In this document: positions 45,831 to 64,000 of the stretch, one piece after another
Layout: every line of letters begins with the position of its first letter
How positions within the stretch are numbered: position 1 is the first letter of the stretch
Virus record (IMG/VR): IMGVR_UViG_2703718833_000007
Location: 1-64,000 of that record
DNA from: a virus
Taxonomy: Duplodnaviria > Heunggongvirae > Uroviricota > Caudoviricetes
Strand: one strand, 5' to 3'
DNA: 64,000 nt
Position numbers and translations under genes: made by a program
Notes under the pieces: generated by a model
Told to the model about the DNA's origin: nothing
What the model saw: the letters and a program-made list of their open reading frames with translations, nothing else
Databases searched by the model: none

Positions 45831-48800
45831 ATGAGTAGCGGCGGCGGCAAAGCCAAAACACCAACATTATTAAACGATAACCTGTATCATAAACAGTTTT
45901 ATCGTGTTTTAGACATTCTCAGCGAGGGGCCGATATACGGTCCGGTAAACCAGAATGCGCCATTAAACAACGTAATGCTTAATGACACGCCTATCACTGA
46001 CGCAAACGGAAACACATCAATCCCGGGGATTAGTATAGCCTGGCGCAACGGCACGGCTGACCAGTCGCCGATTAATGGTTTTAATGCTATCGAATCAACC
46101 GTTATTGTTAACGCAAAGGTAACTCACGATACACCAATAATCAGGACTGTTTCAGATCCAAACGTTAACCGCGTAAGGCTGAATCTTGGCGTTGATTCTC
46201 TGGTTCAGTCAGATGATAAGGGCAATCAATATAATACATCCGTTATGTTGATGGTTGATGTTAAACCGTCATCATCTTCTACGTGGTCGCAAATTAAAAT
46301 CATTACCATCGGACCAGGTAAACAGAGTGGTGAGTATCTTGAAGCTCATATCATAGATGCACCCAATGAAAAACCGTTTGATATTCGCGTGCGCCGCATA
46401 ACAGCAGATAGCAACAGCGATCTATTGCAGAATGATACGCGATGGAGTAGCTACAGCGAAATCATAGACGATAATCTGTCTTACCCTCACACCGCTGTAG
46501 CTGGCGCCGTAATTGACCATGATCAGTATACTGATACGCCTACCCGTAACTATCACCTTCGCGGGCTGATTGTTGATGTGCCGGACAACTATAACCCTGA
46601 AACGCGCACGTATTCCGGTTTATGGCTTGGTGGATTTAAAAAAGCGTACACCAATAACCCTGCGTGGCTTTTCCGGTATCTGGTTAAAAATGAACGTTTC
46701 GGGCTTGCCCGTCACGCTGGTTACATTGACGTTGATGACGGCGCATTGTATACGCTTTCTCAATACTGTGACCAGTTGGTTAGCGACGGTTACGGCGGCT
46801 TTGAACCTCGCATGACGCTTAATGCTTACATCACGGAGCAAATGAGCGCACGCGACTTGCTGGATAATATTGCTGGCATGTTCCGTGGTATCGCGTTATG
46901 GGATGGGCAACGCCTTACCGTGATGATTGATGCGCCACAGGATCCAATTGCCACCATCACAAACGCAAACGTCGTTGATGGTGTGTTTACTCGCTCAAGT
47001 CTTCCGCTTGCAGAGTGTTACAACGCCGTGATCGTATCATGGACTGACCCGGAAAACGGCTGGGAGCAATCAAAAGAATACGTGGCAGATGATGAATTGA
47101 TCGCCCGCGATGGTTATAACGAAACCACGTTGGAGGCGTTCGGTTGCACGTCACGCGGTCAGGCGTACCGCGCTGGCAAATGGCTGATAGAAACAGCAAA
47201 ACGCGAACCGTCAAAATTCACGTTTAAAATGGCCCGTGACGCAATTCACTTCACCCCCGGGGATATTATCGAGATACTCGACAATAACCGCGCTGGCGCA
47301 CGTTTAGGCGGTCGTATCGTGTCAAACACTGGCAGGGTTATCACTGTCGATAAGGTTGATTCTGAATACATCGCCCCAGGTGACACCATTAGCCTGCTTG
47401 ATAGTGATGGCAAGTTTAAAAAACACCAGATCACTGGGGTTAACGGAAACAAAATCACCCTTGCATCCGCCCCGTCATGGATTCGCAACGGGACTGTTTT
47501 CGCTGTATCAACCAACGCGGCAAAACCCGTATTGTGTCGAATCATCAGCGTAGCAGAAACAGAAAATAACAGCGTGTACACCATCGAGGCTGCGCAGCAT
47601 GATCCGCACAAACAGGCCGTAGTTGATGAAGGCGCGATCTTCGAGGTAAACAACGACACCCTTAATCACTTCCGCGTGCCTAACATTGAAAACCTGAAGG
47701 TGTTAAATGTTGGTTCTGAGACAGTTCAATGCCGCGCGACATGGGAAACACAGACGACAACGCATCGCCTGACCTTTGAGATCCGCGTATATAACGCCGA
47801 AGGCCGCGTGGTGGAAACTTATGAAACCACGAATTACCGCTATGAATTTTATGGCCTCGACGCTGGCAGTTACACGCTTGGTATTCGCGGGCGTAATGAC
47901 ACTGGCATGAAGGGTGCGGAAAGTATTGTGGACCTGGTTATTGGTGTACCATTGGCCCCTGTCGGCGTTAATTGGGTTCCTGGTGTTTTCCAGGCAACAG
48001 TATACCCGATCAGCAAAACAACCATGACCACTGATACAGCATATGAGTTCTATTTCTCAGGTGAAAATCAGATCACAGACCCATCAAAAGTAACCACATT
48101 AGCGCAGTTCACCGGGCGTGGCTACCAATGGACTTTTGGCGGCATGAACACGGGCCATACCTATTACGTTTATGTCCGCACACGTAACGCTTTTGGTGTG
48201 TCAGATTTCGTTGAGGCATCAGGAAAACCAACTGAAAACTTCGATGAAATCAGCGACTACGTGACGAAGGATGTTATGGGGTCAGAACAGTTTAAGGACA
48301 TGATTGGCGACATTAAAGATCTTGGCGACCGCACAGATGTTATTGAAAATGCTACAAATGAACTAAAAACAGCGACCGGCAACCTCAAAACTGCAACTGA
48401 TAATCTGACAAACATAACTGACGATTTAAGAACTGAAACCGACAACCTGACCAACATAACCGAAGATTTAAGAACTGACACTGACAACCTGATCACAGAA
48501 ACAGGATCAATAAAAGCTGATACCGATACGCTAAAAAAAGAAACAGAAGATCTTTATAAAAAAGTTAAGGAAAACGCCGATGATATTGGTCAGCATGAGT
48601 CAAGAATTGACTCATTAGAAGTGTCCAGCGAAAAAGTTGGCAGCGAACTGGCGCAAGCAAAAGCAAGCCTGCAAAACGCGTCACTTGCTCTTATTAATAA
48701 CTCACTTGCACAGACAAACACGCGCGTAACTCTTACCGCTCAGTACAATAAAGGCAGGGCAGAGACCAAAGCGCAAATTGACCGCATTGACAACGTTATC

Positions 48801-51170
48801 GCTGAAGAGAAAAAAGCGACAGCGGAATCACTGGAAACCATCACGGCAGAAATGAACACGATGGATTCTAACCTTAAAGGTCAGATTTCTAACGTGCAGC
48901 GCGCAGTAGCTGACGAGGCCAGCGCCCGCGCTGAAGCTATTAACGGTGTAAATGCCTCAATAAGCAATCTTGATAAGAAAACTGACTCCAGCGTTAACCG
49001 CATTGATCAAGCGATCGCTGACGAGACGAGCGCACGGACTCAAGCCATCAGCGACGTAAATGCAAGTATCTCAACGCTAGACAAGAAAACTGACGCCAGC
49101 GTTAAACGCTTGGATCAGGCAATTGCAGATGAAACCAGTGCAAGAACTGAAGCCATCAGCGGCGTGAATGCCTCAATTTCCACGCTTGATGGCAAAGTTA
49201 CAAGCAATATTAACCGCATTGATAAAGCGATTGCAGACGAAACGAAAGCACGCACCGACGCGATCAGTAGCGTGAATGCAAGTATTAGCACACTTGAAAA
49301 CAATACAGAATCAGAAGTAAGCAGACTGGATCAAGCGGTTGCAGATGAAACCAGTGCCCGCACCCAGGCCATTAGCGACGTTAACGCCTCAATAAGCAAT
49401 CTTGAAAGCAAAACTGACGCGAGCGTTTCCCGTCTTGATAAAGCAATATCAGATGAAACGCAGGCAAGAAGCGACGCAGTAACAGAGGTTAAAGCTAATT
49501 TAACGACGCTTGAAAATAGCACAAACTCCAGTGTTAAGCGCCTTGATCAAGCCATCGCCGACGAATCAAGCGCCAGGGCGCAGGCAATATCAGGCATCAG
49601 CGCTGAACTTGGTATAGTTGAAAAAGATGTTGACAAAAACAGCGACGAAATAAATCAGACTAAAGCAAGTCTGCAAAACGCCTCAATCGCACTTATCAAC
49701 AACTCTATCGCTCAGACCAACACGCGGGTTACTCTTACTGCCCAATATAAGAAAGGTCGCAGAGAAACCAACGCGCAAATTGACCGTATTGACAATGTTG
49801 TAGCAGAGGAGAAAAAAGCCACTGCAGAAGCCATTAGCTCTGTAAACGCATCGATAACCGAACTTGATAAGAAGACAGAAGCAAGCGTTAGCCGCCTTGA
49901 TAGAGCGATTGCAGACGAAACGAGCGCCCGCAGCGAGGCCATCAGCGGTGTGAATGCCTCAATTTCCACGCTTGATGGCAAGGTGACAAGCAACGTAACC
50001 AGGATGGATAAGGCGATTGCAGACGAAACGAAGGCCCGTACTGACGCAATAAGTAGTCTTAACTCATCGCTTACCAGTACGATTAATTCTAAGGTATCAG
50101 AGGCGTCAACGGCACTTTCTACGCATGAAGCATCAAGCGCAGAAAAATTTAGCCAGATCTCTGCGTCTTTCGAATCTGTAAACTCAAGTATTACAGAATG
50201 GTCGCAGGCAATGGCAACGGCTGACGAGGCATTATCAAGCAAAATTGATCAGTTGACAGTAACAGTTAACGGGAACAAAACGGCGATAGAGACGACATCG
50301 AAAGCGTTAACCGACTTCAAAGGTAATGTTGATGCGTCGTACTCTATCAAGCTGGCGACCGACAACAACGGAATGAAATACGCAACAGGTATGTCGCTTG
50401 GCCTCACTGGTGACGGCACTAACTTTCAGTCGCAGTGTATTTTCCTTGTTGACCGTTTCGTGTTAATGACCGCAGCAAACGGCACATATACAACGCCTTT
50501 CTATGTCACCAATGGCGCAATGTATGTAAGAGAAGCGTTTATTAAGGACGGCACTATCAACTCCGCCAAAATAGCTGATCTAATACAGTCAGTTAATTAC
50601 AGCTGGGAAAACGGTACAGGATGGGCGATAAATAAAGACGGTAACGCAGTATTTAACCAGGTAACAGTAAGGGGTACGGTATACGCCACAAACGGTAAAT
50701 TTACTGGTGAGATTCAGGCCACAAGCGGGACGTTTAAAGGGACTGTACAGGCTAACAAATTTGTCGGTGATATTGTGGCTATTCACACTTTCCCTGATTC
50801 CAGCACTGTCTATAACTCAAGCCAGCGTGTAGCGCGTTTCTGTTATCGCTATGTGGACTCAACATCCGAAGAGACTTATAAAAACGTTATGTTCCAGGCA
50901 AGGTTATCAGGGGCTACCAACACATCACAGATCAATGCCTGGATAGCTGGTTCTCAGGTATTGGTTGGTAAGAAATACGGTAACGAAAACTCAAACGGCA
51001 TGTTCTGTTTCGGTATGGATGGTGTAACAAATCAGATTGTCGATGTTGTTATCGAGATCTACACTCCGTGGTCAACAGGTAACAACACTGGGATTACGTT
51101 AAGTTGTCCGACCATGTTTATAGGTCGCAGTAACGGCACATGGTCGAAATGGGAAGAATCACACGACTAA
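45831..51170 (+). CDS. host specificity protein J (central tail fiber), expanded to 1779 aa
   Basis: N-terminal 800 aa collinear with recalled lambda J (e.g. YHLRGLIVDVPDNYNPETRTYSG); large internal coiled-coil repeat insertion; distinct C-terminal domain. Confidence 0.9.
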   Translation: MSSGGGKAKTPTLLNDNLYHKQFYRVLDILSEGPIYGPVNQNAPLNNVMLNDTPITDANGNTSIPGISIAWRNGTADQSPINGFNAIESTVIVNAKVTHDTPIIRTVSDPNVNRVRLNLGVDSLVQSDDKGNQYNTSVMLMVDVKPSSSSTWSQIKIITIGPGKQSGEYLEAHIIDAPNEKPFDIRVRRITADSNSDLLQNDTRWSSYSEIIDDNLSYPHTAVAGAVIDHDQYTDTPTRNYHLRGLIVDVPDNYNPETRTYSGLWLGGFKKAYTNNPAWLFRYLVKNERFGLARHAGYIDVDDGALYTLSQYCDQLVSDGYGGFEPRMTLNAYITEQMSARDLLDNIAGMFRGIALWDGQRLTVMIDAPQDPIATITNANVVDGVFTRSSLPLAECYNAVIVSWTDPENGWEQSKEYVADDELIARDGYNETTLEAFGCTSRGQAYRAGKWLIETAKREPSKFTFKMARDAIHFTPGDIIEILDNNRAGARLGGRIVSNTGRVITVDKVDSEYIAPGDTISLLDSDGKFKKHQITGVNGNKITLASAPSWIRNGTVFAVSTNAAKPVLCRIISVAETENNSVYTIEAAQHDPHKQAVVDEGAIFEVNNDTLNHFRVPNIENLKVLNVGSETVQCRATWETQTTTHRLTFEIRVYNAEGRVVETYETTNYRYEFYGLDAGSYTLGIRGRNDTGMKGAESIVDLVIGVPLAPVGVNWVPGVFQATVYPISKTTMTTDTAYEFYFSGENQITDPSKVTTLAQFTGRGYQWTFGGMNTGHTYYVYVRTRNAFGVSDFVEASGKPTENFDEISDYVTKDVMGSEQFKDMIGDIKDLGDRTDVIENATNELKTATGNLKTATDNLTNITDDLRTETDNLTNITEDLRTDTDNLITETGSIKADTDTLKKETEDLYKKVKENADDIGQHESRIDSLEVSSEKVGSELAQAKASLQNASLALINNSLAQTNTRVTLTAQYNKGRAETKAQIDRIDNVIAEEKKATAESLETITAEMNTMDSNLKGQISNVQRAVADEASARAEAINGVNASISNLDKKTDSSVNRIDQAIADETSARTQAISDVNASISTLDKKTDASVKRLDQAIADETSARTEAISGVNASISTLDGKVTSNINRIDKAIADETKARTDAISSVNASISTLENNTESEVSRLDQAVADETSARTQAISDVNASISNLESKTDASVSRLDKAISDETQARSDAVTEVKANLTTLENSTNSSVKRLDQAIADESSARAQAISGISAELGIVEKDVDKNSDEINQTKASLQNASIALINNSIAQTNTRVTLTAQYKKGRRETNAQIDRIDNVVAEEKKATAEAISSVNASITELDKKTEASVSRLDRAIADETSARSEAISGVNASISTLDGKVTSNVTRMDKAIADETKARTDAISSLNSSLTSTINSKVSEASTALSTHEASSAEKFSQISASFESVNSSITEWSQAMATADEALSSKIDQLTVTVNGNKTAIETTSKALTDFKGNVDASYSIKLATDNNGMKYATGMSLGLTGDGTNFQSQCIFLVDRFVLMTAANGTYTTPFYVTNGAMYVREAFIKDGTINSAKIADLIQSVNYSWENGTGWAINKDGNAVFNQVTVRGTVYATNGKFTGEIQATSGTFKGTVQANKFVGDIVAIHTFPDSSTVYNSSQRVARFCYRYVDSTSEETYKNVMFQARLSGATNTSQINAWIAGSQVLVGKKYGNENSNGMFCFGMDGVTNQIVDVVIEIYTPWSTGNNTGITLSCPTMFIGRSNGTWSKWEESHD
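48350..50160 (+). repeat. in-frame tandem repeat region within J (short heptad-like repeats, then ~9 copies of a 36-aa / 108-bp unit, with an internal diverged duplication)
   Basis: Repeating units VNASIS.LD.KT..SV.R.D.AIADETSAR..AIS; block starting QAKASLQNASLALINNSLAQTNTRVTLTAQY recurs at about 49.65 kb. Confidence 0.7.
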
Positions 51171-51278
51171 TACTAACCCCGCTACGGCGGGGTTTATACA
51201 TATAGTAAACACATATTCGTCTGCGTAATGATAAGGCGTTAAAATAGTATGGTTAATTAACATAATGGAGTCATTGCG

Positions 51279-53216
51279 ATGATTTACACAACTGGAACAA
51301 TTGCCATCAATGGCAACACCGTTACAGGTACGGGAACAGATTTTTCCGCGCCGCTTTCTCTCATCCGTGTAGGTTGCACGCTCATTGCCATCGGCAATCC
51401 GGTGCAGATCTTTACCATTACGGAAATCAAAAACGGTACTGAACTGTCAGTTACGCCAGCGGCTAACCCTGCAATCCCTGCGGGAACAAAATTTAGTATT
51501 CTGCTTTCTGATTCGATCTCAGTTGATGGGCTTGCCCAGGACGTAGCTGAAACGTTGCGCTACTATCAGAGTAAAGAAACAGAAGTAGCGGAAGCGCTTG
51601 AATGGAGTCAGAACCATATAGCAGACAAGATCGGGCTTGGTGCAGATCACCGCGACTGGCCTGATTGCAACGATCCTACTGGTTATATAGGTTTTTGCCG
51701 TGCTGTAGAAGCTGAATCACGTAACTTTCCGTCAATCGCATCTGGCGAAATTTACTTGGTTGGTTGGCTTGCGCGTGGTGACAATGCCGTTATTAACGGC
51801 TGTTTCGTTGGTACAATTAGCCTTTCACTGTACACATACAGATATAACCCAACAGATGGTACGAAAGTATGGACACGACACGCAAGAAAAGATGAGGTAA
51901 GCAGATTGGCCCAGGGTTCTGACGAATCAGCTTTATGGGCCGCAGGAGGGAAGCAAAAATTTGTTCTGTTGGATGGAGGTGATGGGAATACTCTATCTTG
52001 GGGTGTTTGGGATGATGCTGTTAGTCAATGGAGTCCATTAGCAATAGCTCAGGGCGGTACTGGTGCGCTTGATGCTTTAACTGCTAGGAACAATCTAGGG
52101 GTGGGTGTAGGTGACAGTCCTCAATTCAGGGATGTGAATCTATCACGCTCAACAGATGAATCATCTGGCTTGGTATCTGGTGGTATACAAAGTTCCATAC
52201 TTCTGGGATCTGATGGTACTAAGCGTGCAGAAGGTTTATTTTATGTAGAACACCAACAAGATAAACCAACACAAGTAACGCTTTCTGTAAATGGAGCTAA
52301 CGAAGGTTATAAATATTTATGCTTTAATACAATGGGGCAGATTTTAGTAGATACAGCCATTTTCAGATCAAACGGCACTAATCCACTTATTATTAAAAGC
52401 AACACACCAACAATCTTATTCGTTGAAGAGGATCGCCCAAACGGATCACCTTATTACAGCTTAAATTTTGATGATGGTAACTGGCGCATTCAGAAAAGTG
52501 GCAATGGGTATAATGGTGAATATGTAATAAACTACGACTATCAAAAAAATGAAATAGAGGTTCCAAAACTCAAAGCATCAAGAATGAGTATTCTTGGGAC
52601 AGGCAGTAGTTTAGAAATAAATAGCGCTGGAACAGCAGATGAAACGACGTCTATTCAATCATGGGGTAATAGATCTGATCGCTTGTCTGTTTTTGAGGTA
52701 AGTTTAGATACAGGCTATTTATTTTACGCGCAGAAAAATGCTGATAAAAGCATGGTTTTATCAGTCAACGGGAAGATAGAATGCGTGTCATTATCCCAAT
52801 CATCTGACAGGGATCTGAAGGATAACATCAAGATTATCAGTGACGCCACTGAAGCCATCCGTAAAATGAACGGGTACACCTACACGCTTAAAGAAAACGG
52901 CCTGCCTTACGCTGGCGTTATCGCTCAGGAGGTCATGGAGGCAATACCGGAAGCAATAGGGTCGTTCACAAAGTACGGTGAAGAACTGGCAGGCCCGACA
53001 CAAAGCGGTCATGAACTGCGAGAAGAAACCCGTTTCCTTAGCGTTGACTACGCAGCAGTCACTGGTTTACTTGTCCAGGTGGCACGCGAAACAGATAACC
53101 GCGTCACCGAACTTGAAGAGGAAAACGCCAGCCTGCGAGATAACATTGCCGCAATGGATGAGCGTATCGCAAAACTTGAAGCGCTTGTCAGCAAGTTGAC
53201 TGGAAGCGAAAAATAA
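51279..53216 (+). CDS. tail fiber protein with C-terminal intramolecular chaperone (S74-type) domain
   Basis: 645 aa; C-terminal segment DLKDNIKII...GYTYTLKENG...AGVIAQEV typical of self-cleaving chaperone domain; AT-rich middle segment. Confidence 0.7.
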   Translation: MIYTTGTIAINGNTVTGTGTDFSAPLSLIRVGCTLIAIGNPVQIFTITEIKNGTELSVTPAANPAIPAGTKFSILLSDSISVDGLAQDVAETLRYYQSKETEVAEALEWSQNHIADKIGLGADHRDWPDCNDPTGYIGFCRAVEAESRNFPSIASGEIYLVGWLARGDNAVINGCFVGTISLSLYTYRYNPTDGTKVWTRHARKDEVSRLAQGSDESALWAAGGKQKFVLLDGGDGNTLSWGVWDDAVSQWSPLAIAQGGTGALDALTARNNLGVGVGDSPQFRDVNLSRSTDESSGLVSGGIQSSILLGSDGTKRAEGLFYVEHQQDKPTQVTLSVNGANEGYKYLCFNTMGQILVDTAIFRSNGTNPLIIKSNTPTILFVEEDRPNGSPYYSLNFDDGNWRIQKSGNGYNGEYVINYDYQKNEIEVPKLKASRMSILGTGSSLEINSAGTADETTSIQSWGNRSDRLSVFEVSLDTGYLFYAQKNADKSMVLSVNGKIECVSLSQSSDRDLKDNIKIISDATEAIRKMNGYTYTLKENGLPYAGVIAQEVMEAIPEAIGSFTKYGEELAGPTQSGHELREETRFLSVDYAAVTGLLVQVARETDNRVTELEEENASLRDNIAAMDERIAKLEALVSKLTGSEK

Positions 53217-53245
53217 GAGGTGATGTGCGAAGAACATCGCCGCGC

Positions 53246-53275
53246 GAAACGAGGCTCACGCCTCGTTTCTTTTTG
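53246..53275 (+). terminator. rho-independent terminator at end of prophage late operon
   Basis: 10-bp perfect stem GAAACGAGGC/GCCTCGTTTC, loop TCAC, then TTTTTG. Confidence 0.65.
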
Positions 53276-53649
53276 TGTACCAAATAGTGACCAAATTTTA
53301 AAAAACAAAACTAAATCATACATAACACACTGTTTTTAAAGAGATAATATTTAACATTAACCATTCCAGACAGGACTGGTGAGTAAGTCCAGGGTATTGA
53401 AGTTGTGCGTAATCATTGAGATCCCGTTATTTTTATCAATTTTTGTTGCTATCCGATCGCAAAAAAGCCACGTCATATGATCAGATAATTCTGATAATGA
53501 TAGACGCTATTTAACACTTCACACGGTTTGTATACGGATAAGCATTTTGCTTTTTGTATTCAATTTAGACAGAATTTTATTAATCATTTCAGGGTAATGG
53601 GGTGATGAGATGTTGCGTAACAGGGCCAGAAGGCTAGACTACAAAATAA

Positions 53650-54654
<1,005 letters not shown>

Positions 54655-54700
54655 CAAAAGCAATTTTTCCGGCTGTCTGTATACAAAAACGCCGCAAAGT

Positions 54701-54714
54701 TTGAGCGAAGTCAA
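54701..54714 (+). promoter_or_regulatory. FNR-box upstream of fnrS
   Basis: TTGAGCGAAGTCAA matches TTGAT-N4-ATCAA consensus, centred about 42 bp upstream of predicted sRNA 5-prime end. Confidence 0.5.
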
Positions 54715-54749
54715 TAAACTCTCTACCCATTCAGGGCAATATCTCTCTT

Positions 54750-54871
54750 GCAGGTGAATGCAACGTCAAGCGATGGGCGTTGCGCTCCATATTGTCTTAC
54801 TTCCTTTTTTGAATTACTGCATAGCACAATTGATTCGTACGACGCCGACTTTGATGAGTCGGCTTTTTTTT
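54750..54871 (+). ncRNA. fnrS: FnrS small regulatory RNA
   Basis: Between zntB and dbpA; begins GCAGGTGAATGCAACGTC and ends with GCCGACT...AGTCGGC hairpin plus T8; matches recalled FnrS locus. Confidence 0.6.
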
Positions 54872-54928
54872 GCCTGTTATTTATCAGCGTCTACCCTTTA
54901 AGAGTCCACCCAATGACCAGAGGGAAAT

Positions 54929-55102
54929 ATGACGACACTTATTTATTTGCAAATTCCTGTCCCTGAACCGATTCCTGGCGATCCTGTTCCAGTGCCCGAT
55001 CCGATCCCTCGCCCGCAACCCATGCCTGACCCACCACCCGATGAAGAACCGATTAAATTGTCGCATCGTGAGCGTAGATCTGCGAGGATACGCGCCTGCT
55101 AA
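54929..55102 (+). CDS. small proline-rich ORF (57 aa)
   Basis: AGAGGG RBS; MTTLIYLQIPVPEPIPGDPVPVPDPIPRPQPMPDPPPDEEPIKLSHRERRSARIRAC; coding status unverified. Confidence 0.3.
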   Translation: MTTLIYLQIPVPEPIPGDPVPVPDPIPRPQPMPDPPPDEEPIKLSHRERRSARIRAC

Positions 55103-55131
55103 CTTTGCGTCGATGACCACGAGAATAGATT

Positions 55132-56505
55132 GTGACCGCTTTTTCTACCCTGAATGTTTTGCCTCCCGCCCAACTCACGAACCTTAATGAGTTGGGTTAT
55201 TTAACCATGACGCCGGTGCAGGCCGCCGCGCTTCCGGCGATCCTTGCCGGAAAAGATGTTCGCGTGCAGGCGAAAACCGGCAGCGGCAAAACGGCGGCTT
55301 TTGGCCTCGGCTTGTTACAGCAAATTGATGCGTCGCTATTTCAAACCCAGGCTTTAGTGCTGTGTCCTACGCGTGAACTGGCGGATCAGGTGGCAGGTGA
55401 ATTGCGTCGGCTGGCGCGTTTTCTGCCAAATACCAAAATTTTGACGTTGTGCGGTGGTCAACCGTTCGGTATGCAGCGTGATTCGTTGCAACATGCGCCG
55501 CATATTATCGTGGCAACGCCGGGGCGTTTGCTGGATCACCTGCAAAAAGGCACGGTATCACTGGATGCGTTGAATACGCTGGTGATGGATGAGGCCGACC
55601 GCATGCTGGATATGGGATTTAGCGATGCCATTGATGATGTCATCCGTTTTGCGCCTGCATCTCGACAGACGCTTCTGTTTTCGGCAACCTGGCCGGAAGC
55701 CATCGCTGCAATCAGCGGACGAGTGCAACGCGATCCTTTGGCGATTGAAATTGACTCAACAGATGCTTTGCCACCCATTGAACAACAATTTTATGAGACA
55801 TCCAGCAAAGGCAAAATTCCTCTGTTGCAACGGTTATTAAGCTTGCATCAGCCATCCTCTTGCGTGGTGTTTTGCAATACCAAAAAAGATTGCCAGGCTG
55901 TCTGCGACGCGCTGAATGAAGTAGGGCAAAGTGCATTGTCATTACACGGCGATTTGGAGCAACGCGATCGCGATCAGACCCTGGTACGTTTTGCTAACGG
56001 TAGCGCCCGTGTACTGGTCGCGACTGATGTTGCTGCGCGTGGTCTGGATATTAAATCGCTTGAGCTGGTGGTGAACTTTGAGCTGGCGTGGGACCCTGAA
56101 GTTCATGTACATCGCATCGGTCGTACAGCTCGTGCAGGAAATAGCGGTCTGGCGATCAGTTTCTGTGCTCCGGAAGAAGCACAGCGGGCCAATATCATTT
56201 CTGACATGTTGCAGATAAAACTTAACTGGCAAACGCCGCCAGCTAATAGTTCCATTGCGACGCTGGAAGCAGAAATGGCAACGTTGTGTATCGATGGCGG
56301 GAAAAAAGCCAAAATGCGCCCGGGTGATGTATTAGGTGCACTGACAGGAGATATCGGGCTTGATGGCGCAGATATTGGCAAAATCGCCGTGCATCCGGCG
56401 CATGTCTATGTCGCGGTCCGTCAGGCTGTTGCTCATAAAGCATGGAAACAGTTACAGGGCGGGAAGATTAAAGGAAAAACGTGCCGGGTGCGGTTATTAA
56501 AATAA
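55132..56505 (+). CDS. dbpA: ATP-dependent RNA helicase DbpA
   Basis: 457 aa; DEAD-box motifs (GSGKT, DEAD, SAT, HRIGRTAR) and C-terminal RNA-binding domain; GTG start. Confidence 0.9.
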   Translation: MTAFSTLNVLPPAQLTNLNELGYLTMTPVQAAALPAILAGKDVRVQAKTGSGKTAAFGLGLLQQIDASLFQTQALVLCPTRELADQVAGELRRLARFLPNTKILTLCGGQPFGMQRDSLQHAPHIIVATPGRLLDHLQKGTVSLDALNTLVMDEADRMLDMGFSDAIDDVIRFAPASRQTLLFSATWPEAIAAISGRVQRDPLAIEIDSTDALPPIEQQFYETSSKGKIPLLQRLLSLHQPSSCVVFCNTKKDCQAVCDALNEVGQSALSLHGDLEQRDRDQTLVRFANGSARVLVATDVAARGLDIKSLELVVNFELAWDPEVHVHRIGRTARAGNSGLAISFCAPEEAQRANIISDMLQIKLNWQTPPANSSIATLEAEMATLCIDGGKKAKMRPGDVLGALTGDIGLDGADIGKIAVHPAHVYVAVRQAVAHKAWKQLQGGKIKGKTCRVRLLK

Positions 56506-56633
56506 TGAAATGTTGAATTGCCGGGTGCAAGAGTAAACATCTTATTCGGGATTGCCGGATGCGACGCTGGCCGCGTCTTATCCGGCCTCCATAAGAGTAG
56601 CCCGATACGCTTGCGCATCGGGCGCTATCCTGG

Positions 56634-57569
56634 TTATTTCACTTCAACCACATTCAGCCGTAACTCATCCAACTGATTTTCATCTTCTTCTGGCTGCCAG
56701 CACGCCGGTTGTAGTGGGATCTCTTCGCGATCAAACGCCAGATCACCCCCGTTAACCACTTCAGAACCGTGGGTGATGCCTTTGAAATCGAACAGGTTGG
56801 TATCGCACAGATGCGACGGCACCACATTCTGCATCGCGCTGAACATCGTCTCGATACGCCCTGGATAACGTTTATCCCAGTCACGCAACATGTCAGCAAT
56901 CACCTGACGTTGCAGGTTAGGCTGTGAACCGCACAGGTTGCACGGAATAATCGGGAACGCTTTTGCATCGGCAAATCGCTGAATATCTTTCTCGCGGCAG
57001 TAGGCCAGCGGACGAATAACGATATGTTTGCCATCATCGCTCATCAGTTTCGGAGGCATACCTTTCATCTTACCGCCGTAGAACATATTTAAGAACAACG
57101 TTTGCAGGATATCGTCACGATGGTGACCCAACGCGATCTTCGTCGCCCCCAGTTCCGTTGCGGTACGATAAAGGATACCGCGACGAAGGCGAGAACACAG
57201 TGAGCAAGTGGTTTTGCCCTCTGGAATCTTCTCTTTCACGATACCGTAAGTATTCTCTTCAACAATCTTGTACTCAACGCCCAGCTTTTCAAGATACTCG
57301 GGCAGAACGTGTTCCGGGAAGCCCGGTTGCTTTTGATCGAGGTTAACAGCCACCAGCGAAAAATTGATTGGCGCGCTTTGCTGCAAATTGCGCAGAATCT
57401 CCAGCATGGTATAGCTGTCTTTACCCCCGGAGAGGCAAACCATGATGCGATCGCCTTCTTCAATCATATTGAAGTCAGCAATGGCTTCGCCCACGTTACG
57501 ACGCAGACGTTTTTGTAATTTGTTCAGATTGTATTGTTCTTTCTTTGTAATTTGTTGATTTTCTTGCAT
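56634..57569 (-). CDS. ttcA: tRNA 2-thiocytidine biosynthesis protein TtcA
   Basis: 311 aa; PP-loop SGGKDS motif and Cys clusters. Confidence 0.9.
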
Positions 57570-57620
57570 TATTTCAGTTCTCTGGTACTAAATGGGGCAA
57601 ATTGGGGGCAAACTTTGCAA

Positions 57621-58856
57621 CTACGATAACCGCGCATTCAACATGGCTATCTGTTCGTCGTTCATGTCATCAATCCACATACCGTAAATTTCATACACCA
57701 TCTGCGCAGTTTCATGCCCCATTTGGCTGGCTATAAATGCCGGGTTCGCTCCTGCCGTCAACAGCCAGCAGGCAAAAGTATGCCGCGTATGGTACGGATT
57801 ACGGCGGCGAATACCAGCACGTTTTACTGCTGCATTCCACCTTGCCCCCAAACTGCTTACCGAGTAATAAGGTTTTTGTTTTCCGTTACACACCCTGGGC
57901 ATGAAAACAAAATGCAGTTTTTGCTTTTCGGTTCTGCCGTACTCCCGATGATAAAAGGTGATTTCGCTTTTGCGATGATGCCCGGTCAGTTTGTATTGCT
58001 CCTTCAGTGCTTCAAGAGCAGGCTGCAGTAGTGTTACTGTTCGGATCCCGGCATTTGTTTTTGGGGGACCGAACATATCAAGTATCGTCAGGTTTCTTCT
58101 GACATTCACTATTCCCTTTTCGAGATCCACATCCTCCCACGCCAGAGCTGCCAGTTCCCCGTGACGAAGTCCTGAGTAAACGGCAAATTTCCACAAGTTC
58201 TGGCTCTGTCCTTTTTCACTTTCCATTAATGCATTGAATTCTGTTTTAGATAACGGATCAGGCTTTATTCTGTTTCGCTGTAATTTTTTTACTCCTTCAA
58301 ATGGTTTGGTTGATATAAATCCCGACTGATACGCAAAACGCAACAGCGAACAGAGCAGGGCGATATAGTTATCAACTGTGCGCACGGTTCTTCCTTTTTT
58401 GTTGGATCTTGGATTATCCAGGTAAAGCGTTTCTCCATGCAGCAGTTCATTCCGGTAGTTTAAGATATCGCTATAACGAATATGTGATATCGGGGTACTT
58501 TCACAAATTATTATTCTGAGTGTTTTTAATTGTGATTTTGTTTTCTTCATTGTGTATGTTGTTAACTCTGTCTCTTTAATTTTTGTCCAGATATCACAAA
58601 GCTCTCCGAACGTTTTTATGACTCTCGTTGTCACCATTTTTGCCCCAGTGCTGGACTGGGGAAAACGTCTTAAATACTCAAATTCACCGGAGTTTATTTC
58701 ATGAACTATCAGCGCTCTTAAATTTCCGGCCTTTTTAATATTACTGTTTGTAATCTCCCAGCCTTTTAATGTTTCCCGACATCGTTTTCCTCGAAACATG
58801 AACCAGATGCGAATGTATCTACCTCTAATCTCGACACCTGTTGGTAATTTAGACAT
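57621..58856 (-). CDS. intR: Rac prophage tyrosine integrase
   Basis: 411 aa; tyrosine recombinase C-terminal motifs (R...HxxR...Y). Confidence 0.9.
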   Translation of the reverse strand: MSKLPTGVEIRGRYIRIWFMFRGKRCRETLKGWEITNSNIKKAGNLRALIVHEINSGEFEYLRRFPQSSTGAKMVTTRVIKTFGELCDIWTKIKETELTTYTMKKTKSQLKTLRIIICESTPISHIRYSDILNYRNELLHGETLYLDNPRSNKKGRTVRTVDNYIALLCSLLRFAYQSGFISTKPFEGVKKLQRNRIKPDPLSKTEFNALMESEKGQSQNLWKFAVYSGLRHGELAALAWEDVDLEKGIVNVRRNLTILDMFGPPKTNAGIRTVTLLQPALEALKEQYKLTGHHRKSEITFYHREYGRTEKQKLHFVFMPRVCNGKQKPYYSVSSLGARWNAAVKRAGIRRRNPYHTRHTFACWLLTAGANPAFIASQMGHETAQMVYEIYGMWIDDMNDEQIAMLNARLS

Positions 58857-58857
58857 A

Positions 58858-59073
58858 TCATGAGTCTTTGATAAACTGATTTATCTTTGGATAGTTGTAC
58901 CAGATAATCCCTCGTTTGCTGTCTGGCTTACCTAAAGGAGATACTCGTTTGAAGTGGAAGCCCTCCACCCAACAGTTCTGGCGGTATGCTTCAATTTGTC
59001 TGGCCCCCAGACCAGTGCGAAGCATCAGGCCGTATTCAACCATCCACTCTTCATTAAAGATTACTTGTGCCAT
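58858..59073 (-). CDS. xisR: Rac excisionase
   Basis: 71 aa from internal Met [10 protein letters not shown]; directly upstream of intR. Confidence 0.75.
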
Positions 59074-59151
59074 CGCATCACCTCTGGCAGGCGCCAATGT
59101 TAGACTGAAATTGACGCCCGATGTTGATTATTAATAATAAGCTATGAAGTT

Positions 59152-59361
59152 TTAATTTGAATACAATGCAATTCTCGAGGACTGAAGTTTCTCGCAATTA
59201 AAATTTATCAGTTTTACTTTCTGCTCTCTGGAAACGCCTGCTTCTTTTTTACCTGAGAGCATTTTTTCGCATTCTGATTTCGTTAGTTTAGATTTTGAAT
59301 ATCTTGTCCAGTTAGTAGGAGTGCCACCTTCCTTTTCAATAGTGGCGGTAATTTTATACAT
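59152..59361 (-). CDS. rcbA: Rac small protein RcbA-like
   Basis: Track ORF 93 aa; likely 69 aa from MYKITATIEK; assignment from recalled Rac gene order. Confidence 0.5.
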   Translation of the reverse strand: MYKITATIEKEGGTPTNWTRYSKSKLTKSECEKMLSGKKEAGVSREQKVKLINFNCEKLQSSRIALYSN

Positions 59362-59548
59362 GAACACCTCCATTATTATTTCCAGTGGTTCGTTTATTCC
59401 ATCTTTCGAGTGCTTCTTTTTCACCTCCACCATAACCGGTTCGGGATTCGCATCCGTTACACTTCGCTCGGTAATATCCTGAAATGGCTTTCACCGTTAC
59501 TGATGGACAACCACAAAATGGACATGGTTTAACATTGTCATATCTCAT
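59354..59548 (-). CDS. ralR: RalR / Lar (restriction alleviation protein; type I toxin)
   Basis: 64 aa from MRYDNVKPCPFCGC; CxxC...CxxC zinc-ribbon. Confidence 0.7.
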   Translation of the reverse strand: MRYDNVKPCPFCGCPSVTVKAISGYYRAKCNGCESRTGYGGGEKEALERWNKRTTGNNNGGVHV

Positions 59549-59604
59549 AATTTTTCTCATAAAAAATATTTCAAGTTGGCGGTGCATTACACCGCCAGGC
59601 TGAA

Positions 59605-60414
59605 TTATTCCTCTGAATTATCGATTACACTGTATTCCCCGGTTAATACAGAGGAATCTGCAGGATCGATTGTCAGTGGTTCCTTTTCATCCATTGATAC
59701 TGCACGCTGGATCTCAATTGATACGGGCAGATATTTGAACAGGCGACGAATAGCCGTTTTCTTTGCCATTTCTTCCCAGTGAGTTACCCACGGCCCGTTA
59801 TTACCAGCTTTACTCAGGCTGCGCACCAGCTCAATCTGTTTGCGCGTCATAACTTCAAACTGAGTACCTCCGTCTTTCAGTCTTGCGACAGCATAGACGT
59901 GGGTAACCGGGGCATCTTCGTTTTCTCCCGGGCGGTGTATTAACTTTTCATCAAGGCCAAATTCGAAGCTAAACTCGTCACCTTCACGGACAACACGGGC
60001 TGACAGGCTGGCGATTTGACCAGAACGGCGAGCCAGATCAATCATGCCGCGATAGCCAATGATTAGCTGAACGTTCTTTTTACCGCTCTTTTCGTTTTTA
60101 TTACCAAAAGGCAGTAAATATGCATGACCGAGGGCGCTACCTGGCTCAAGTCCGAGCTGTGAACACTGTACGATCGCACTGACAAAACTCATAGTGTCAC
60201 AGTTTCCTAACGCCGGAACTTTACGAATTTCTGTGGTGGCGATACGGATCATACGTTCAGCCGTCATATGGCGTGGAAGAGCTGCTGCCAGTTGCTCTTT
60301 CATTGATGGCTGGTTAATAAAACTAATCACGTCGCTATTTTTAACTGCTGCTGGTGCACGGTTTCCCTGAGTTTTTTGCAGATCGGTTTTTGCGATTGGT
60401 GGTTGCTTAGTCAT
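59605..60414 (-). CDS. recT: RecT single-strand annealing protein
   Basis: 269 aa from MTKQPPIAK; start overlaps recE stop. Confidence 0.9.
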
Positions 60415-63007
60415 TTGCATATTCCTTAGCCCAGCGGGGCAGTGATAATGTCTTAATAGCTGGCCATTCATCGGTATTCAGGCAGTCAGACAGGGTTCGC
60501 AGATTGCGGTGATATTCCTGTTGACCTGCCAGTTTTGCTTCTTCGCCCATCATGAAAATTTCAACCGGATAACGTCCGCATTCAATAGTTGTGCTGGCAA
60601 CCAGAAAAACGAAAGTTGGCTGCACTCCAAACTGTGCTTCATAACCGTCACTGTAGAATGCATCCTGAACGTGATAGCGGTAGTCGTAATAAGCGGTTTT
60701 GAATCGTTGAATATCCGCCGTAGTTTTCACGTCCATGATCCAGTGAAATTCAGGGATAATTTTGTCCGGACGGCACCGACACAAAATTCCTGTTTCAGGA
60801 TCTTCCCAGTAAATTGATGATTCAGCGTGTCCGGCGCTTTCAACAAGCCATTGCCCCAGCGGCAAAGCCATAACGCTTTGATACATGAGTTCAATTTTCC
60901 GGCCTTCTTCCGCAGTGATAACCGTTTTTCCTGTGCTTGCGCATTCCATCAGAAACGCTTTCTCTTCTTCTTTTCCGGCGTTTGTACGGCGGTTAAATTC
61001 AGGTGCTACGATAAAGCGGTTACTGAATTCCTCCGGTTCAAGTACCCGGCAGTGGAAAGCGGTTCCTAAATCGAGCGTTTTTGTCTTTGTGGTGTCCACG
61101 GGGGCATTTTTACGCCACAAATATAGTGCCGGAGTATCAGCAATGTCATCGAGCTGAGACTTACTGACACCGGGACCCGCGTGGTAATTCTCATTCGAAA
61201 TTCCGTAATAAATACCTGGCTCTATGTCTTCTACGATTACGGGATCTGCGACTTCGCCAGTTTCATCACTGCAATCGCGATGCGGATCGCTGCCAGCATT
61301 CTCATTGTGCGGATGTTCAGCGCCTTCCATTTCCTCCGGATCATTTTCCTTAGCTTCAACCTGACTCTCTTCATCGAATGTTTCCTGGTATGTTGCGTCG
61401 CCCATCACCGCACCACAGTCAGGGCAGTTATCCCCGCCAGTCTGGCCGCAGGCATTGCAGGCTATTTCCGGTTCCTGTTGCACTACTGGCTCAGGTTGAT
61501 TCATATCCGGGCTGGTTTTTTCCGTTTCTGGCTGGTTCTGGTACACACAATCGCGAGTCTGGATCCCCTTTACCCATTTCGGATCGTTCGGGTCGCTAAT
61601 TCCGTCAACAAATTCACCACGTGATGCAGCAAGCAATTTATCGGCATCGACAGGATTTTTTGATGGAATGTTTTTCCGGGCTTCATGGAGTTCTGCCCGC
61701 AGTTCCTGATATTTCGCATCAACAGAATTTACCTGTGACTGAGCATCCAGCGGCTGCGTGTCCTGATGATGTTCAGTTGCGTCCGGTTCCATTGTTTCAG
61801 CCTCTCCCTGTTCAACTGCCGTTGTTCCAGATGGTTGCGGTTTTTCTTCATCATCCTGTTTTCCTTCTTCTGTTACTCGCTGCGGCATCGGGGCAGAGGA
61901 GCGACCGCAGGCAATATCCACGATTTCCGGATCAGGGTTGGCATGATCGGTTTCAGTCAGTACTTTGTTCAGATATTCAGTGACGTGCGCGGGGATGACC
62001 TCGATCCCAATTGGTGCTTCTTTTACGGACGCAACCACGATGGCGCGGGAATAATCCAGCCCGCCAGGCATGGTGATGAATTTGTCGCGGAAAACAGAAA
62101 AGGGCGGTTTATTTTCAGCGATAATTTCCTCAATGCGTTTAGCGTGTGCCGGATGAAGGTTATAGATGTCCAGATCCATTGAACGGGCCAGTACGCCAGT
62201 GGCTACGTCGCGCGCCAGTGACGTCAGATCGTGTACGAAACCTTCGCCGCGATCGGTGAGGTTTCCGCCGCCAGCATTAGCACCGGAAGCCGTGCGAGTG
62301 ATGTGTGAAACACGATTACCCTTCATCCACTCTTTTGTCAGCAGTCCTCGATCGGTGTAGTCAGCGTTCAGGTATGCTTCGAAAAAAGCAGTTATCAGTC
62401 CCAGGTTTGAATTACCAGGATTAGGGAAAACTTTGTCAGTGTCACGAACCAGTTTGTGGAGTTCGCGAATTTCCAGCGGGTCGAGCAGGCTGGTTTTGTG
62501 GGAAACAGCCAGGGCAGTAACAGCCGGTAGTTCTTCAGCCCGAGCAATGTGTAATGCCTGGAGTCCGTCGCGTGAAACGTGCGTTACCGGTTTTTCGCTG
62601 CCGTGTTGAGCAAGCCAACGAATGGGCAGTTCCTGGCCAGAAATTGGGAGTAGCATATTCTCCTCAATCTCAGTCATGTCTTCGCCGTTGACGTTGGTAT
62701 TGCCTTGATAGTGAGCGTTGTCTGGTGCTGCTCCCGGTTTTAGTTCCCATGTCATGGAGTCTTTGCTGAGTTGATAGCGTTCACTCCAGGTAAAATCGAT
62801 CTCACCTTCAGCGGGCAGGTCATTAACGACAGGAAAATTCGTGGCAACAGCTTTAAAATAGCTGCTCAGTTTTTTACCTGACTTAACGATCAGGTAGTCC
62901 AGAGTGGCACAGGTCGATTCAAAATCGTTGCTTGCCCACAGGACGACGTCAGGTTCACCGGATGATTTTTTCGCTTTCCGTAACAGGAAGAGTGGTTTTG
63001 TGCTCAT
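60407..63007 (-). CDS. recE: RecE exonuclease VIII
   Basis: 866 aa; followed by recT. Confidence 0.9.
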
Positions 63008-63108
63008 TGTTTTTTAACCTCAACTCAGATTAAAATTCGTTTTGTTCAGTGAATGATCTTGCCGGATACACACTGTTCATAGCCTGCGCCATACGCAGGC
63101 TATTTCTT

Positions 63109-63384
63109 TCAGATTTCACCTTTTAATTTCATTGCAATTAGAGTTGCCAGAAATTCGGCTTTTTTTTCTGCGGGCAGATTCTTTCCGATATGCACCAGGC
63201 ACATTTTTTTGACACCTTCATCAAGTGTTTTTACGTTGCCTGATGGACCATCGATATCAACCACAGTGAATGGGGTTTCTTTATTTTCTGTTTTAATTAC
63301 GTAGCCAATGCGCTTTCCTTCCAGATTCACCTCGTGAACAATGTCATCGGTAGTTACAACAGTGGCTTCATAATTGGTAATCAT
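63109..63384 (-). CDS. racC: RacC
   Basis: 91 aa from MITNYEATVV. Confidence 0.7.
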   Translation of the reverse strand: MITNYEATVVTTDDIVHEVNLEGKRIGYVIKTENKETPFTVVDIDGPSGNVKTLDEGVKKMCLVHIGKNLPAEKKAEFLATLIAMKLKGEI

Positions 63385-63458
63385 GTTTTTCTCCTTAATT
63401 AAGGTTGAGCGAATACCTGCCATTTCTGGCATAAATTCAGTTTCGAATAGTCAATTAA

Positions 63459-63629
63459 TTAAAGTTCATGTGCCATCTGGTCTTTTTCGGCACAAGCTTC
63501 ACTGCAATATTTTCTCGGTTCGTCTTTTGATAAAATCCCGTGCATGAAGTGAAGCATTCTTTCAATAGCTTTGCTTTCTTCAACGTCTTTTTTGCAAAGG
63601 TGGTAAGCACATTTTATTTTCTTAGTCAT
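63459..63629 (-). CDS. ydaE: YdaE-like small Cys-rich protein (56 aa)
   Basis: [56 protein letters not shown]; below track cutoff. Confidence 0.55.
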   Translation of the reverse strand: MTKKIKCAYHLCKKDVEESKAIERMLHFMHGILSKDEPRKYCSEACAEKDQMAHEL

Positions 63630-63850
63630 CACCATGACTCCGCCTTTACAGGTAAACCATCACGACCGAGGAAGACTTTAATCATGCGGTCAGTAATGCA
63701 TGTTTTTGTGGTCAGGTTACGAATATATAGTTTTCGCTTTTTAATATTGTTTGCCGAGGCAATATATGTCCGGCCTTCATGAAGAACATAATCGCCAGGA
63801 GTCACACACTGACGTGGTATTTCATCAGTTCCGAAGTGATGTGCAATCAT
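63629..63850 (-). CDS. kilR: KilR (Rac killing protein, cell-division inhibitor)
   Basis: 73 aa from [10 protein letters not shown]. Confidence 0.7.
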
Positions 63851-64000
63851 AATTATCTCCATTTTTACAAATGAACTTTGTTGATGCGGTGCCTGGTGCC
63901 TCCAGGTGACTGCAACCAGTTAACAATTACAGTCGGCTTTCCCACCCAAACCAATAAGGACTAACATGACTTTTAACTGTGCCACGTGCGCTTAGCCGCA

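Follow-up and report, generated by a model that had tools for sequence, protein, structure and literature searches.

Among phages described so far, the closest system to the locus analyzed here is the mEpimmI (mEp021-like) group of temperate siphophages, whose integration site is the 5' region of ydaM (PMC11893012). In this group, a fiber gene (mEp010_118, PP180001; mEp554_113) follows J, and no further gene separates it from attR in ydaM. A variable "tail tip protein" is among the virion proteins of mEp021 detected by mass spectrometry (PMC11893012), and the mEp021 homologue of the fiber discussed below is mEp021_82, annotated as "tail structural protein; putative tail tip protein".

Four other systems are useful for comparison. 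The first comprises the L-shaped fibers of the T5-like phages, which end in an S74 chaperone where Ser and Lys form a dyad at a distance of five residues. The L-shaped fiber of T5, pb1 (PDB 4UW7/4UW8), binds polymannose O-antigen. Ser1264 of T5 pb1 is an experimentally proven nucleophile, as the S1264A substitution abolishes auto-proteolysis, and Lys1269 has a catalytic role as well; the binding site has been proposed to lie at the fiber end that is laid bare by cleavage of the chaperone (PMC4690869). The second is the K1F endosialidase endoNF, a trimeric protein of host recognition that has a domain of the same Pfam family, PF13884, as its extreme C-terminal part. The third consists of the KP36-like (Webervirus) depolymerases Depo32 (7VYV/7VZ3) and 7LZJ, which are beta-helix enzymes lacking an S74 end. 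Finally, the side fibers of the lambda Stf and Mu type have a separate Tfa chaperone gene directly downstream.

The fiber gene and its genomic setting

The stretch of DNA analyzed, referred to below as the window, is 64,000 nt long. At 51279-53216 on the plus strand it contains an intact ORF that begins with ATG and encodes 645 aa, a precursor of 69.8 kDa, exactly as a preliminary description had reported. This is the side (lateral) tail fiber gene, and the last gene, of an mEpimmI prophage. All the annotated families among its best 25 of 33 PHROG matches are tail-fiber or baseplate families, and NCBI holds a protein identical to the 645-aa product, named "tail fiber domain-containing protein". 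In a Pfam search S74 was the sole match. An NCBIfam search of the protein returned no significant family, nor did it detect the pyocin-knob domain mentioned for some relatives. Fold matches were to phage fibers only. Pfam and fold searches revealed no sialidase or other enzymatic domain, in contrast to K1F endoNF, and a depolymerase or endosialidase function was rejected on these grounds.

The upstream neighbor is J, a protein of 1779 aa with Pfam J domains. The right prophage/host junction (attR) was placed by BLASTN against MG1655 at approximately 53365; from there on the window is 99.8% identical to E. coli K-12, beginning within the first 52 nt of dgcM (ydaM). The prophage is thus inserted in dgcM/ydaM, and its fiber gene comes after J and last before attR, as in mEp010, mEp044, mEp554 and mEp021. 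These four phages differ from the present prophage in possessing a lipoprotein gene between J and the fiber gene. Directly 3' of the J stop codon, a GC-rich hairpin read from the sequence (ccccgc-tacg-gcgggg, then TTT; 51177..51192, plus strand) is a probable terminator between J and the fiber gene. It is absent from the list produced by a simple terminator scan; mEp010, mEp044 and mEp554 have an annotated terminator at the homologous position. A ribosome-binding site, GGAG, also read from the sequence, is located at 51267-51270 (plus strand), 8 nt before the ATG. The promoter scan yielded a weak sigma-70-like candidate on the same strand (TTAAAA, 16 nt, CATAAT; 51239-51266; 9/12 matches), a site no better than chance in a scan whose number of sites was not above that in shuffles. 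Behind the gene, the terminator scan detected a rho-independent terminator (53246..53279, plus strand; 10-bp stem, 4-nt loop, T-run) at the same position as an annotated one in mEp010, mEp044 and mEp554. There is no separate tail fiber assembly gene of the kind found beside lambda Stf, the terminator and attR lying less than 150 nt after the fiber stop codon, with no downstream phage ORF. Two minus-strand ORFs inside the fiber gene (52800-53012 and 53048-53323) were taken to be chance ORFs, because it is the plus frame that is conserved across relatives.

Anchor, shaft and tip

Judged from its sequence, the fiber is built of a conserved anchor, a shuffled AT-rich part that would bind the receptor, and a folding chaperone predicted to cleave itself. 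Homologues of the AT-rich part were sought by tblastn against phages and by local BLAST on 120 full-length relatives. Median identities among these relatives are 93% for the anchor, 55% for a proximal shaft module (A), 39% for a second shaft module (B), 39% for the distal tip and 87% for the chaperone. The two ends are therefore the conserved elements, with the 93% median holding for the N-terminal 109 aa, and they are retained by relatives with differing middle parts. The same is evident in the named phages: compared with the mEp010 and mEp554 fibers, the N-terminal 109 aa are 90-97% identical and the S74 chaperone 87-88% identical. Overall, the mEp010 protein, annotated as a tail fiber protein, is 79% identical to the present one, and the DNA is about 90% identical over 87% of the gene.

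The anchor (aa 1-111; 51279..51611, plus strand) was defined by this identity and by its PDB matches. Residues 3-111 match depolymerases of Klebsiella siphophages (7VYV, 7VZ3 and 7LZJ) at their N-terminus with E=8e-25, in a region described for KP36-like phages as a conserved anchor domain (PMC10581125). Past the anchor the likeness to these proteins ends. The codon usage of the anchor is native (z=-0.4), and its presumed role is to dock the fiber on the tail tip. The anchor bears no similarity to the BF23 or T5 Ltf proteins; the present fiber has a Webervirus-type N-terminus where the T5-type Ltf has a collar-binding end.

Beyond the anchor, the resemblance is to the T5-like L-shaped fibers. 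In module A (aa 112-275; 51612..52103, plus strand), residues 118-273 are 45% identical to aa 173-327 of BF23 Ltf, and AlphaFold models aa 120-200 as a beta domain with a pLDDT of 82-91. Module B (aa 276-420; 52104..52538, plus strand) has a GC3 of 0.269; a segment that begins in it, aa 280-438, is 42% identical to BF23 Ltf aa 432-593, and a longer one that takes in part of the chaperone (aa 352-620) is 27% identical to BF23 Ltf. By tblastn the fiber also matches many Tequintavirus fibers, while T5 pb1 matches it only in the chaperone core. There are clear differences as well: the present fiber, at 645 aa, is half as long as the T5-like fibers of 1265 and 1396 aa, and the phage that carries it is temperate and has a J-type tip.

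The distal tip (aa 421-508; 52539..52802, plus strand) is the most variable segment. It is predicted to become the mature C-terminus after cleavage, and it is probably the receptor-binding end. Its identity to the mEp010-type protein is as low as 33%, but it reaches 89% with P0004 (L006), a metagenomic relative, and 81% with P0005, which marks the tip as derived from a different lineage. In an AlphaFold model of aa 396-645 the tip has a pLDDT of about 90, and Foldseek matched it to the C-terminal region of T4 gp34 (E=1e-5). When aa 276-508 alone were searched against a large protein database, the one match was an alternative annotation of the same gene, a result that is evidently due to a word-index limit.

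Recombination and base composition

The preliminary description had also called attention to base composition, stating that the central part of the gene is more AT-rich than its flanks. This is the case. The block 52101..52800 has 37.7% GC, compared with 47.3% in the 5' part of the gene, 50.0% in the 3' part and 45.8% in the window as a whole, and only 0.5% of 700-bp windows have a GC content as low or lower. It had been suggested that this block is a recently exchanged receptor-binding segment. If so, a single segment at 52.1-52.8 kb would have been imported recently, with the boundary in composition marking the exchange. The strength of the compositional anomaly and the fact that the block spans the most variable segments of the family both speak for this idea.

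Recombination in the fiber gene is real, and its location can be derived from the 471 informative sites in a comparison with mEp010 and P0004. Between nucleotides 91 and 1170 of the gene, 241 sites are mEp010-like and 22 are P0004-like; between nucleotides 1261 and 1800 the corresponding numbers are 8 and 177. The 5' switch in parentage thus falls between nucleotides of about 1100 and 1260 of the gene (about 52.38-52.54 kb), within the end of module B (NPLxxKSxxPTIxFxE...DGNWRIQK...GEYVI), and the 3' switch falls at about 53.08 kb. Sliding identity and informative sites together define a recombinant cassette of about 540 nt (52540..53078), which is 90-99% identical to P0004 and only 40-84% to mEp010. 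Over the 5' 1.2 kb of the gene the relation is reversed, and mEp010 is the closer of the two. The cassette contains the tip, the predicted cleavage site and about 90 aa of the chaperone.

The swapped block (about 52.54-53.08 kb) and the AT-rich block (52.1-52.8 kb) do not coincide. The breakpoints cut across the AT-rich block, and the cassette runs on into the chaperone, which is normal in GC. Moreover, AT-biased codons are present already from aa 112, so that the compositionally foreign part comprises aa 112-508 rather than 52.1-52.8 kb alone. A dip in GC is also seen in the homologous columns of mEp010, mEp044, mEp554, P0004 and P0005, whichever variant they carry. Because it is common to all the relatives checked, the AT-richness is an ancient trait that the T5-Ltf-like part has throughout the family, and not the trace of something recent in this prophage. 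Nor can an import of this material have been recent, because the nearest AT-rich gene of the donor type, BF23 ltfp, is just 42-45% identical. Finally, none of the 120 relatives combines flanks at least 95% identical with a GC-normal, unrelated sequence at exactly 52.1-52.8 kb. As a whole, these results make it unlikely that the block is one recent import. What survives of the earlier suggestion is that a segment with the probable receptor-binding end was exchanged; what does not is the identification of that segment with the AT-rich block and the reading of its composition as evidence of recency.

The S74 chaperone end

The same description had recognized the hallmarks of an intramolecular chaperone in the C-terminal 130 aa or so, and profile searches bear this out. 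The stretch SDRDLKDNIKII begins at aa 509, which gives a C-terminal domain of 137 aa and 15.1 kDa (aa 509-645 plus the stop codon; 52803..53216, plus strand), compared with 133 aa in T5. The match to PF13884 (Peptidase_S74) covers aa 509-559 and profile positions 1-56 of 58 with 53.4 bits (E=3.1e-14), where the gathering score is 22 and T5 pb1 itself scores 35.9 bits. Sequence comparison thus supports the presence of an S74-type intramolecular chaperone on this tail fiber. Compared directly with T5 pb1, the domain shows a weak similarity that does not extend beyond its first half (aa 493-561; pairwise E=0.027). When the chaperone profile was aligned by hhalign with the single T5 pb1 sequence, the match was likewise weak (E=0.071), though in the correct register, and the register was for this reason taken from the Pfam profile positions. 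In this register Ser509 (52803-52805, plus strand), at profile position 1, corresponds to T5 pb1 Ser1264 and is the predicted nucleophile, while Lys514 (52818-52820, plus strand) is aligned with Lys1269 and is the predicted general base. The predicted scissile bond is accordingly placed between Ser508 and Ser509. The motif SSDRxxK aligns with a chain of PDB 6F45 named "Long tail fiber distal subunit".

The S74 domain forms the last 137 residues of the protein and ends in a heptad-rich helix (aa about 597-645), which AlphaFold models at aa about 596-645 with a pLDDT of 62-88; aa 601-640 give matches to coiled coils of both designed and natural origin. The chaperones of K1F and T5 (3GW6 and 4UW8) have a fold with a beta-hairpin tentacle and a coiled coil at the center. 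In the AlphaFold monomer of aa 396-645 the chaperone residues 505-595 are poorly modeled (pLDDT about 40), and Foldseek with this model, poor in its chaperone part, matched no chaperone structure. Since a part of the chaperone that is putatively its "tentacle" lies within the swapped cassette, it was at first suspected that tip and chaperone are co-adapted and move as a unit. This was rejected: for the tip versus any sub-region of the chaperone among the 120 relatives, Spearman r ranges from -0.04 to 0.07.

The S74-like domain might instead be retained uncleaved, as a permanent C-terminal trimerization domain. The nucleophile position is occupied by Ser in 115 of the 120 relatives and by Cys in the other 5, including mEp010, so that cleavage could be dispensable in the family. 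However, Cys is itself a competent nucleophile, and the domain is 137 aa long in all 5 Cys-type relatives, as it is in 112 of the 115 with Ser. In a 32-sequence alignment Asp510 and Lys514 are invariant and Ser509 is nearly so. Further, an uncleaved fragment of the T5 fiber does not act as a competitive inhibitor of phage infection, and the authors of that study interpreted this to mean that the receptor site is masked until cleavage (PMC4690869). Permanent retention of the domain consequently seems distinctly unlikely, and we favor a chaperone that is removed.

Codon usage

The low GC content might, in principle, say nothing about ancestry and merely reflect the amino-acid make-up of a beta-structured fiber rich in Ser, Asn and Gly. 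Indeed, aa 276-508 are rich in Ser and Asn, and GC1 and GC2 drop there as well. Synonymous sites permit a decision. When aa 276-508 were recoded with the codon usage of the prophage, the expected GC was 0.461 +/- 0.011, as against an observed value of 37.6% (z = -7.6), and amino-acid content therefore does not explain the dip. The GC3 of this segment is 0.275, while 233-codon windows in the remaining structural genes of this prophage average 0.498 +/- 0.057 with a minimum of 0.391. This synonymous-site test largely refutes an explanation from amino-acid content, which is left as very improbable. The codons of aa 112-275 are likewise AT-biased (z = -4.6). Across aa 112-508 GC3 is 0.27-0.34, and the value for BF23 ltfp is 0.283, so that in the modules shared with BF23 Ltf the GC3 is alike, at about 0.28.

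That the prophage is defective and the gene no more than a silent remnant, as its place at the extreme prophage edge between terminators and its weak promoter-like site might hint, is scarcely credible given an uninterrupted 645-codon ORF with a ribosome-binding site, the same position and flanking terminators in the viable phages mEp010, mEp044 and mEp554, and the strong conservation of anchor and chaperone.

A model for the fiber and its implications

In the account of the gene as a whole, the model below included, we place high confidence. We infer from these comparisons that the fiber trimerizes, is cleaved and binds a receptor, in the following manner. The C-terminal S74 chaperone (aa 509-645) would hold three chains in register and act as the nucleus from which the trimeric tip and shaft fold. 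In the correctly folded trimer, Lys514 would activate Ser509, and Ser509 would cut the Ser508-Ser509 bond; departure of the 15-kDa chaperone would then expose the distal tip (aa 421-508) of a mature fiber of 54.7 kDa, which the conserved N-terminal anchor would fix to the tail tip. The initial contact, reversible and with a glycan or a protein of the cell surface, would probably fall to the fiber, and the irreversible one to J. In this mosaic gene, the conserved anchor and chaperone serve as homologous-recombination handles, flanking an AT-rich shaft-and-tip region of T5-like L-shaped-fiber ancestry that is shuffled between phages.

A broader proposal is offered only tentatively, and we rate its chances as somewhat below even. 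Residues 112-508 may derive from an AT-rich gene pool that is shared with virulent T5-like phages and plugged, in the temperate mEpimmI phages, between two universal adaptors, and one nearly invariant S74 chaperone may fold dozens of tips without tip-specific co-variation. Across the family the chaperone is more than 90% identical, while identity among the tips is only about 38%.

Both S74 chaperone ends and mosaicism in receptor-binding proteins belong to the textbook knowledge of phages. The fiber gene is an ordinary one, already annotated and from a known group of E. coli prophages, and it is of little importance alone. Nevertheless, the analysis maps the domains, and predicts cleavage at Ser508|Ser509, for the uncharacterized gene that comes last in the mEpimmI phages, a group described only recently, and it illustrates that a compositional dip in a fiber gene need not coincide with a recombination boundary. 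It also suggests that a single type of chaperone is compatible with many different tips, a point of relevance to host-range engineering. If the notion of a shared gene pool is correct, the chaperone would be a general-purpose folding handle for the engineering of fibers, and the mosaic would be a sign that virulent and temperate coliphages continue to exchange genes.

The side tail fibre gene and its setting

The fibre ORF occupies positions 51279-53216 of the plus strand, exactly where the preliminary description placed it, and encodes 645 aa from an ATG preceded by GGAG 8 nt upstream. NCBI lists an identical 645-aa protein under the name "tail fiber domain-containing protein [Escherichia coli]" and gives it a precomputed PF13884 assignment. 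Annotation of the gene is inconsistent across public records; P0121, an earlier call at this locus on the 258-kb contig that also carries P0001, is just a 267-aa 'hypothetical protein' corresponding to aa 379-645. Among relatives, the whole fibre is between 534 and 1121 aa long.

Downstream of the gene, a computed scan finds a terminator at 53246-53269, and from about 53365 BLASTN shows 99.8% identity to K-12, beginning within the first 52 nt of dgcM/ydaM. With its right junction (about 53365) inside these 52 nt, the prophage interrupts this diguanylate cyclase gene, in agreement with the published account of mEpimmI phages. The host flank (53365-64000) is E. coli chromosomal DNA, in which the region of zntB (53671-54654) and dbpA (55132-56505), 3' of the fibre gene, shares 99% identity with thousands of E. 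coli genomes. The window begins within the prophage, with a DnaB-like helicase encoded at 2556-3971, and the left prophage end therefore lies outside it. The nearest phage, mEp010 (about 90% DNA identity across 87% of the fibre gene), belongs to a recently described group of temperate siphophages, mEpimmI (mEp021-like), whose integration site is the 5' end of ydaM (PMC11893012). The homologous fibre gene is also the last gene in mEp010, mEp044, mEp554 and mEp021, and in the first three it is followed by an annotated terminator. A variable "tail tip protein" is among the mEp021 virion proteins detected by mass spectrometry, and S74 is not mentioned in that paper (PMC11893012); mEp021_82 is annotated as "tail structural protein; putative tail tip protein".

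The J-type tip protein encoded upstream (45831-51170) is unusually long at 1779 aa and carries a long coiled-coil-like insertion of tandem repeats (48389-48492 and 48931-49186) with units of 36 aa (108 nt) and 14 aa (42 nt). Repeat content is not the same as in mEp010 J, and the alignment of the two is gapped at about 49000-49350 and about 49900. Most of J is 75-97% identical to mEp010 at the DNA level, whereas the C-terminal receptor-binding end (50500-51170) is only 25-69% identical, and the outer-membrane receptor of the prophage is probably other than LamB, the receptor of mEp010. Only 108 nt (51171-51278) separate J from the fibre gene. This gap lacks the minus-strand lipoprotein (Lpp superinfection-exclusion) gene that is present there in mEp010, mEp044, mEp554 and mEp021; the system has been reported in 83% of mEpimmI genomes (PMC11893012).

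Domain organization and the S74 chaperone

The N-terminal anchor (aa 1-111), conserved among relatives with differing middles, matches the N-terminal part of 7VYV and 7LZJ, depolymerases of Klebsiella siphophages (E=8e-25), a part described as a conserved N-terminal anchor in KP36-like phages (PMC10581125). It is followed by two shaft modules, A (aa 112-275) and B (aa 276-420), supported by homology to the L-shaped fibre of BF23, a T5-like phage (45% identity over aa 118-273 and 42% over aa 280-438), and by AlphaFold, which models them as confident beta domains (pLDDT 80-90). The distal tip (aa 421-508; pLDDT about 90) matches the C-terminal region of T4 gp34 (Foldseek, E=1e-5). In the viral library, the structural neighbours of the middle part are all tail fibres, among them proteins named "L-shaped tail fiber" and "Peptidase S74 domain-containing". 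Pfam and fold searches found no enzymatic domain in the protein.

Since the motif SDRDLKDNIKII starts at residue 509, the C-terminal domain (aa 509-645) comprises 137 aa, a length shared by 117 of the 120 relatives. The proposed S74-type chaperone is borne out at the level of sequence: the match of Pfam Peptidase_S74 ("chaperone of endosialidase") covers aa 509-559 and scores 53.4 bits (E=3.1e-14), the curated cut-off being 22 bits. The experimentally characterised T5 pb1 matches the same model at 1264-1323, profile position 1 being Ser1264 in T5 and Ser509 here, and when the two proteins are aligned pairwise, Ser509 pairs with Ser1264 and Lys514 with Lys1269. In T5 pb1, auto-proteolysis is blocked by S1264A, the serine is activated by Lys1269, a 133-residue chaperone is freed once the trimer has folded, and the fibre fragment competes with infection only in its cleaved form (PMC4690869). 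A further alignment matches the SSDRxxK motif to the PDB 6F45 chain called "Long tail fiber distal subunit". In a 32-sequence alignment neither Asp510 nor Lys514 varies, and the nucleophile position holds Ser in 115 of 120 relatives and Cys in the other 5. From the match to the T5 residues and this conservation, cleavage is predicted at Ser508|Ser509, which would split the chain into a mature fibre of 54.7 kDa and a chaperone of 15.1 kDa. AlphaFold models the chaperone poorly as a monomer (pLDDT about 40).

The Cys-type relatives (P0002, P0008, P0039, P0054 and P0074), with the motif SCDRDLK, include the cultured phage mEp010, where the position is aa 519 of the fibre. Their fibre architectures differ, which suggests that the Ser-to-Cys changes arose independently or spread by recombination. 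The mEp021 fibre (positions 3501-4850 of its genome, 449 aa) shares the anchor and has a far more divergent S74 chaperone (23% identity; LSDRDHK at aa 332), and at least two chaperone lineages are circulating among mEpimmI phages.

The absence of a downstream gene rules out a fibre of lambda or Mu type, which has a separate assembly protein. Nor is the protein a full orthologue of T5 Ltf: its N-terminal anchor is of Webervirus type, it is only half as long, and similarity to T5 pb1 itself is confined to the chaperone core. By every sequence criterion tested, the protein belongs to both the S74 chaperone and the mEpimmI fibre families, and its mode of action would be that of a lateral fibre of T5 type that carries an intramolecular chaperone.

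The AT-rich block is a property of the family

The AT-rich middle is real: 52101-52800 has 37.7% GC, compared with 47.3% and 50.0% in the flanks of the gene and 45.8% in the whole window, and among all 700-bp windows just 0.5% are that low. An expected GC was obtained for every segment by recoding it with codon frequencies taken from the remaining structural genes of the prophage. Observed and expected GC were 0.477 and 0.484 for the anchor (z -0.4), 0.472 and 0.534 for aa 112-275 (z -4.6), 0.376 and 0.461 +/- 0.011 for aa 276-508 (z -7.6), and 0.504 and 0.479 for the chaperone (z +1.6), so that amino-acid content is ruled out as the cause. GC3 in aa 276-508 is 0.275, compared with 0.498 +/- 0.057 elsewhere in the structural genes and 0.283 in the BF23 ltfp gene. 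The part with foreign codons thus coincides with that homologous to T5-like L-shaped fibres, suggesting that the segment is part of an AT-rich pool of fibre genes shared with Demerecviridae.

The preliminary description had taken this composition as the sign of a recently exchanged receptor-binding segment. With protein identity to BF23 of only 42-45%, there is no indication of recent transfer, and the dip recurs in the homologous columns of mEp010, mEp044, mEp554, P0004 and P0005, regardless of the variant carried; it is therefore family-wide.

A different cassette has been exchanged

The fibre family is strikingly mosaic, with median identities to the 120 best relatives of 93% in the anchor, 55% in module A, 39% in module B, 39% in the tip and 87% in the chaperone. 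Parentage is incongruent along the gene: in the same order, the mEp010-like P0002 is 96%, 93%, 75%, 33% and 87% identical to the window fibre, and P0004 95%, 64%, 55%, 89% and 95%. When the window gene was compared three ways, codon by codon, with mEp010 and the metagenomic contig carrying P0004, 471 sites were informative. Between gene nt 91 and 1170, 241 are mEp010-like and 22 P0004-like; between nt 1261 and 1800 the counts are 8 and 177, and beyond about nt 1800 the signal weakens. These shifts place the 5' breakpoint at about 52380-52540, in the conserved motif that ends module B, and the 3' breakpoint at about 53080, within the conserved helix at the C-terminus. An exchange thus did occur, and its cassette comprises the tip, the cleavage site and the first ~90 residues of the chaperone; with breakpoints at these positions, the AT-rich block is ruled out as the exchanged segment. 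As a whole, the earlier observations are confirmed and the chaperone reading is supported by sequence, while the step from composition to recent exchange was only partly right. The gene is one more member of a well-known kind.

Because the cassette includes part of the chaperone, co-variation of tip and chaperone was examined over all pairs among the 120 relatives. No sub-region of the chaperone correlated in identity with the tip (mean tip identity 38%; Spearman r = -0.04 to 0.07), and co-variation is rejected. The chaperone is >90% identical throughout these relatives, whatever the tip. Evidently, a single chaperone type serves many different tips, and most simply the anchor and the chaperone are conserved flanks that host homologous recombination.
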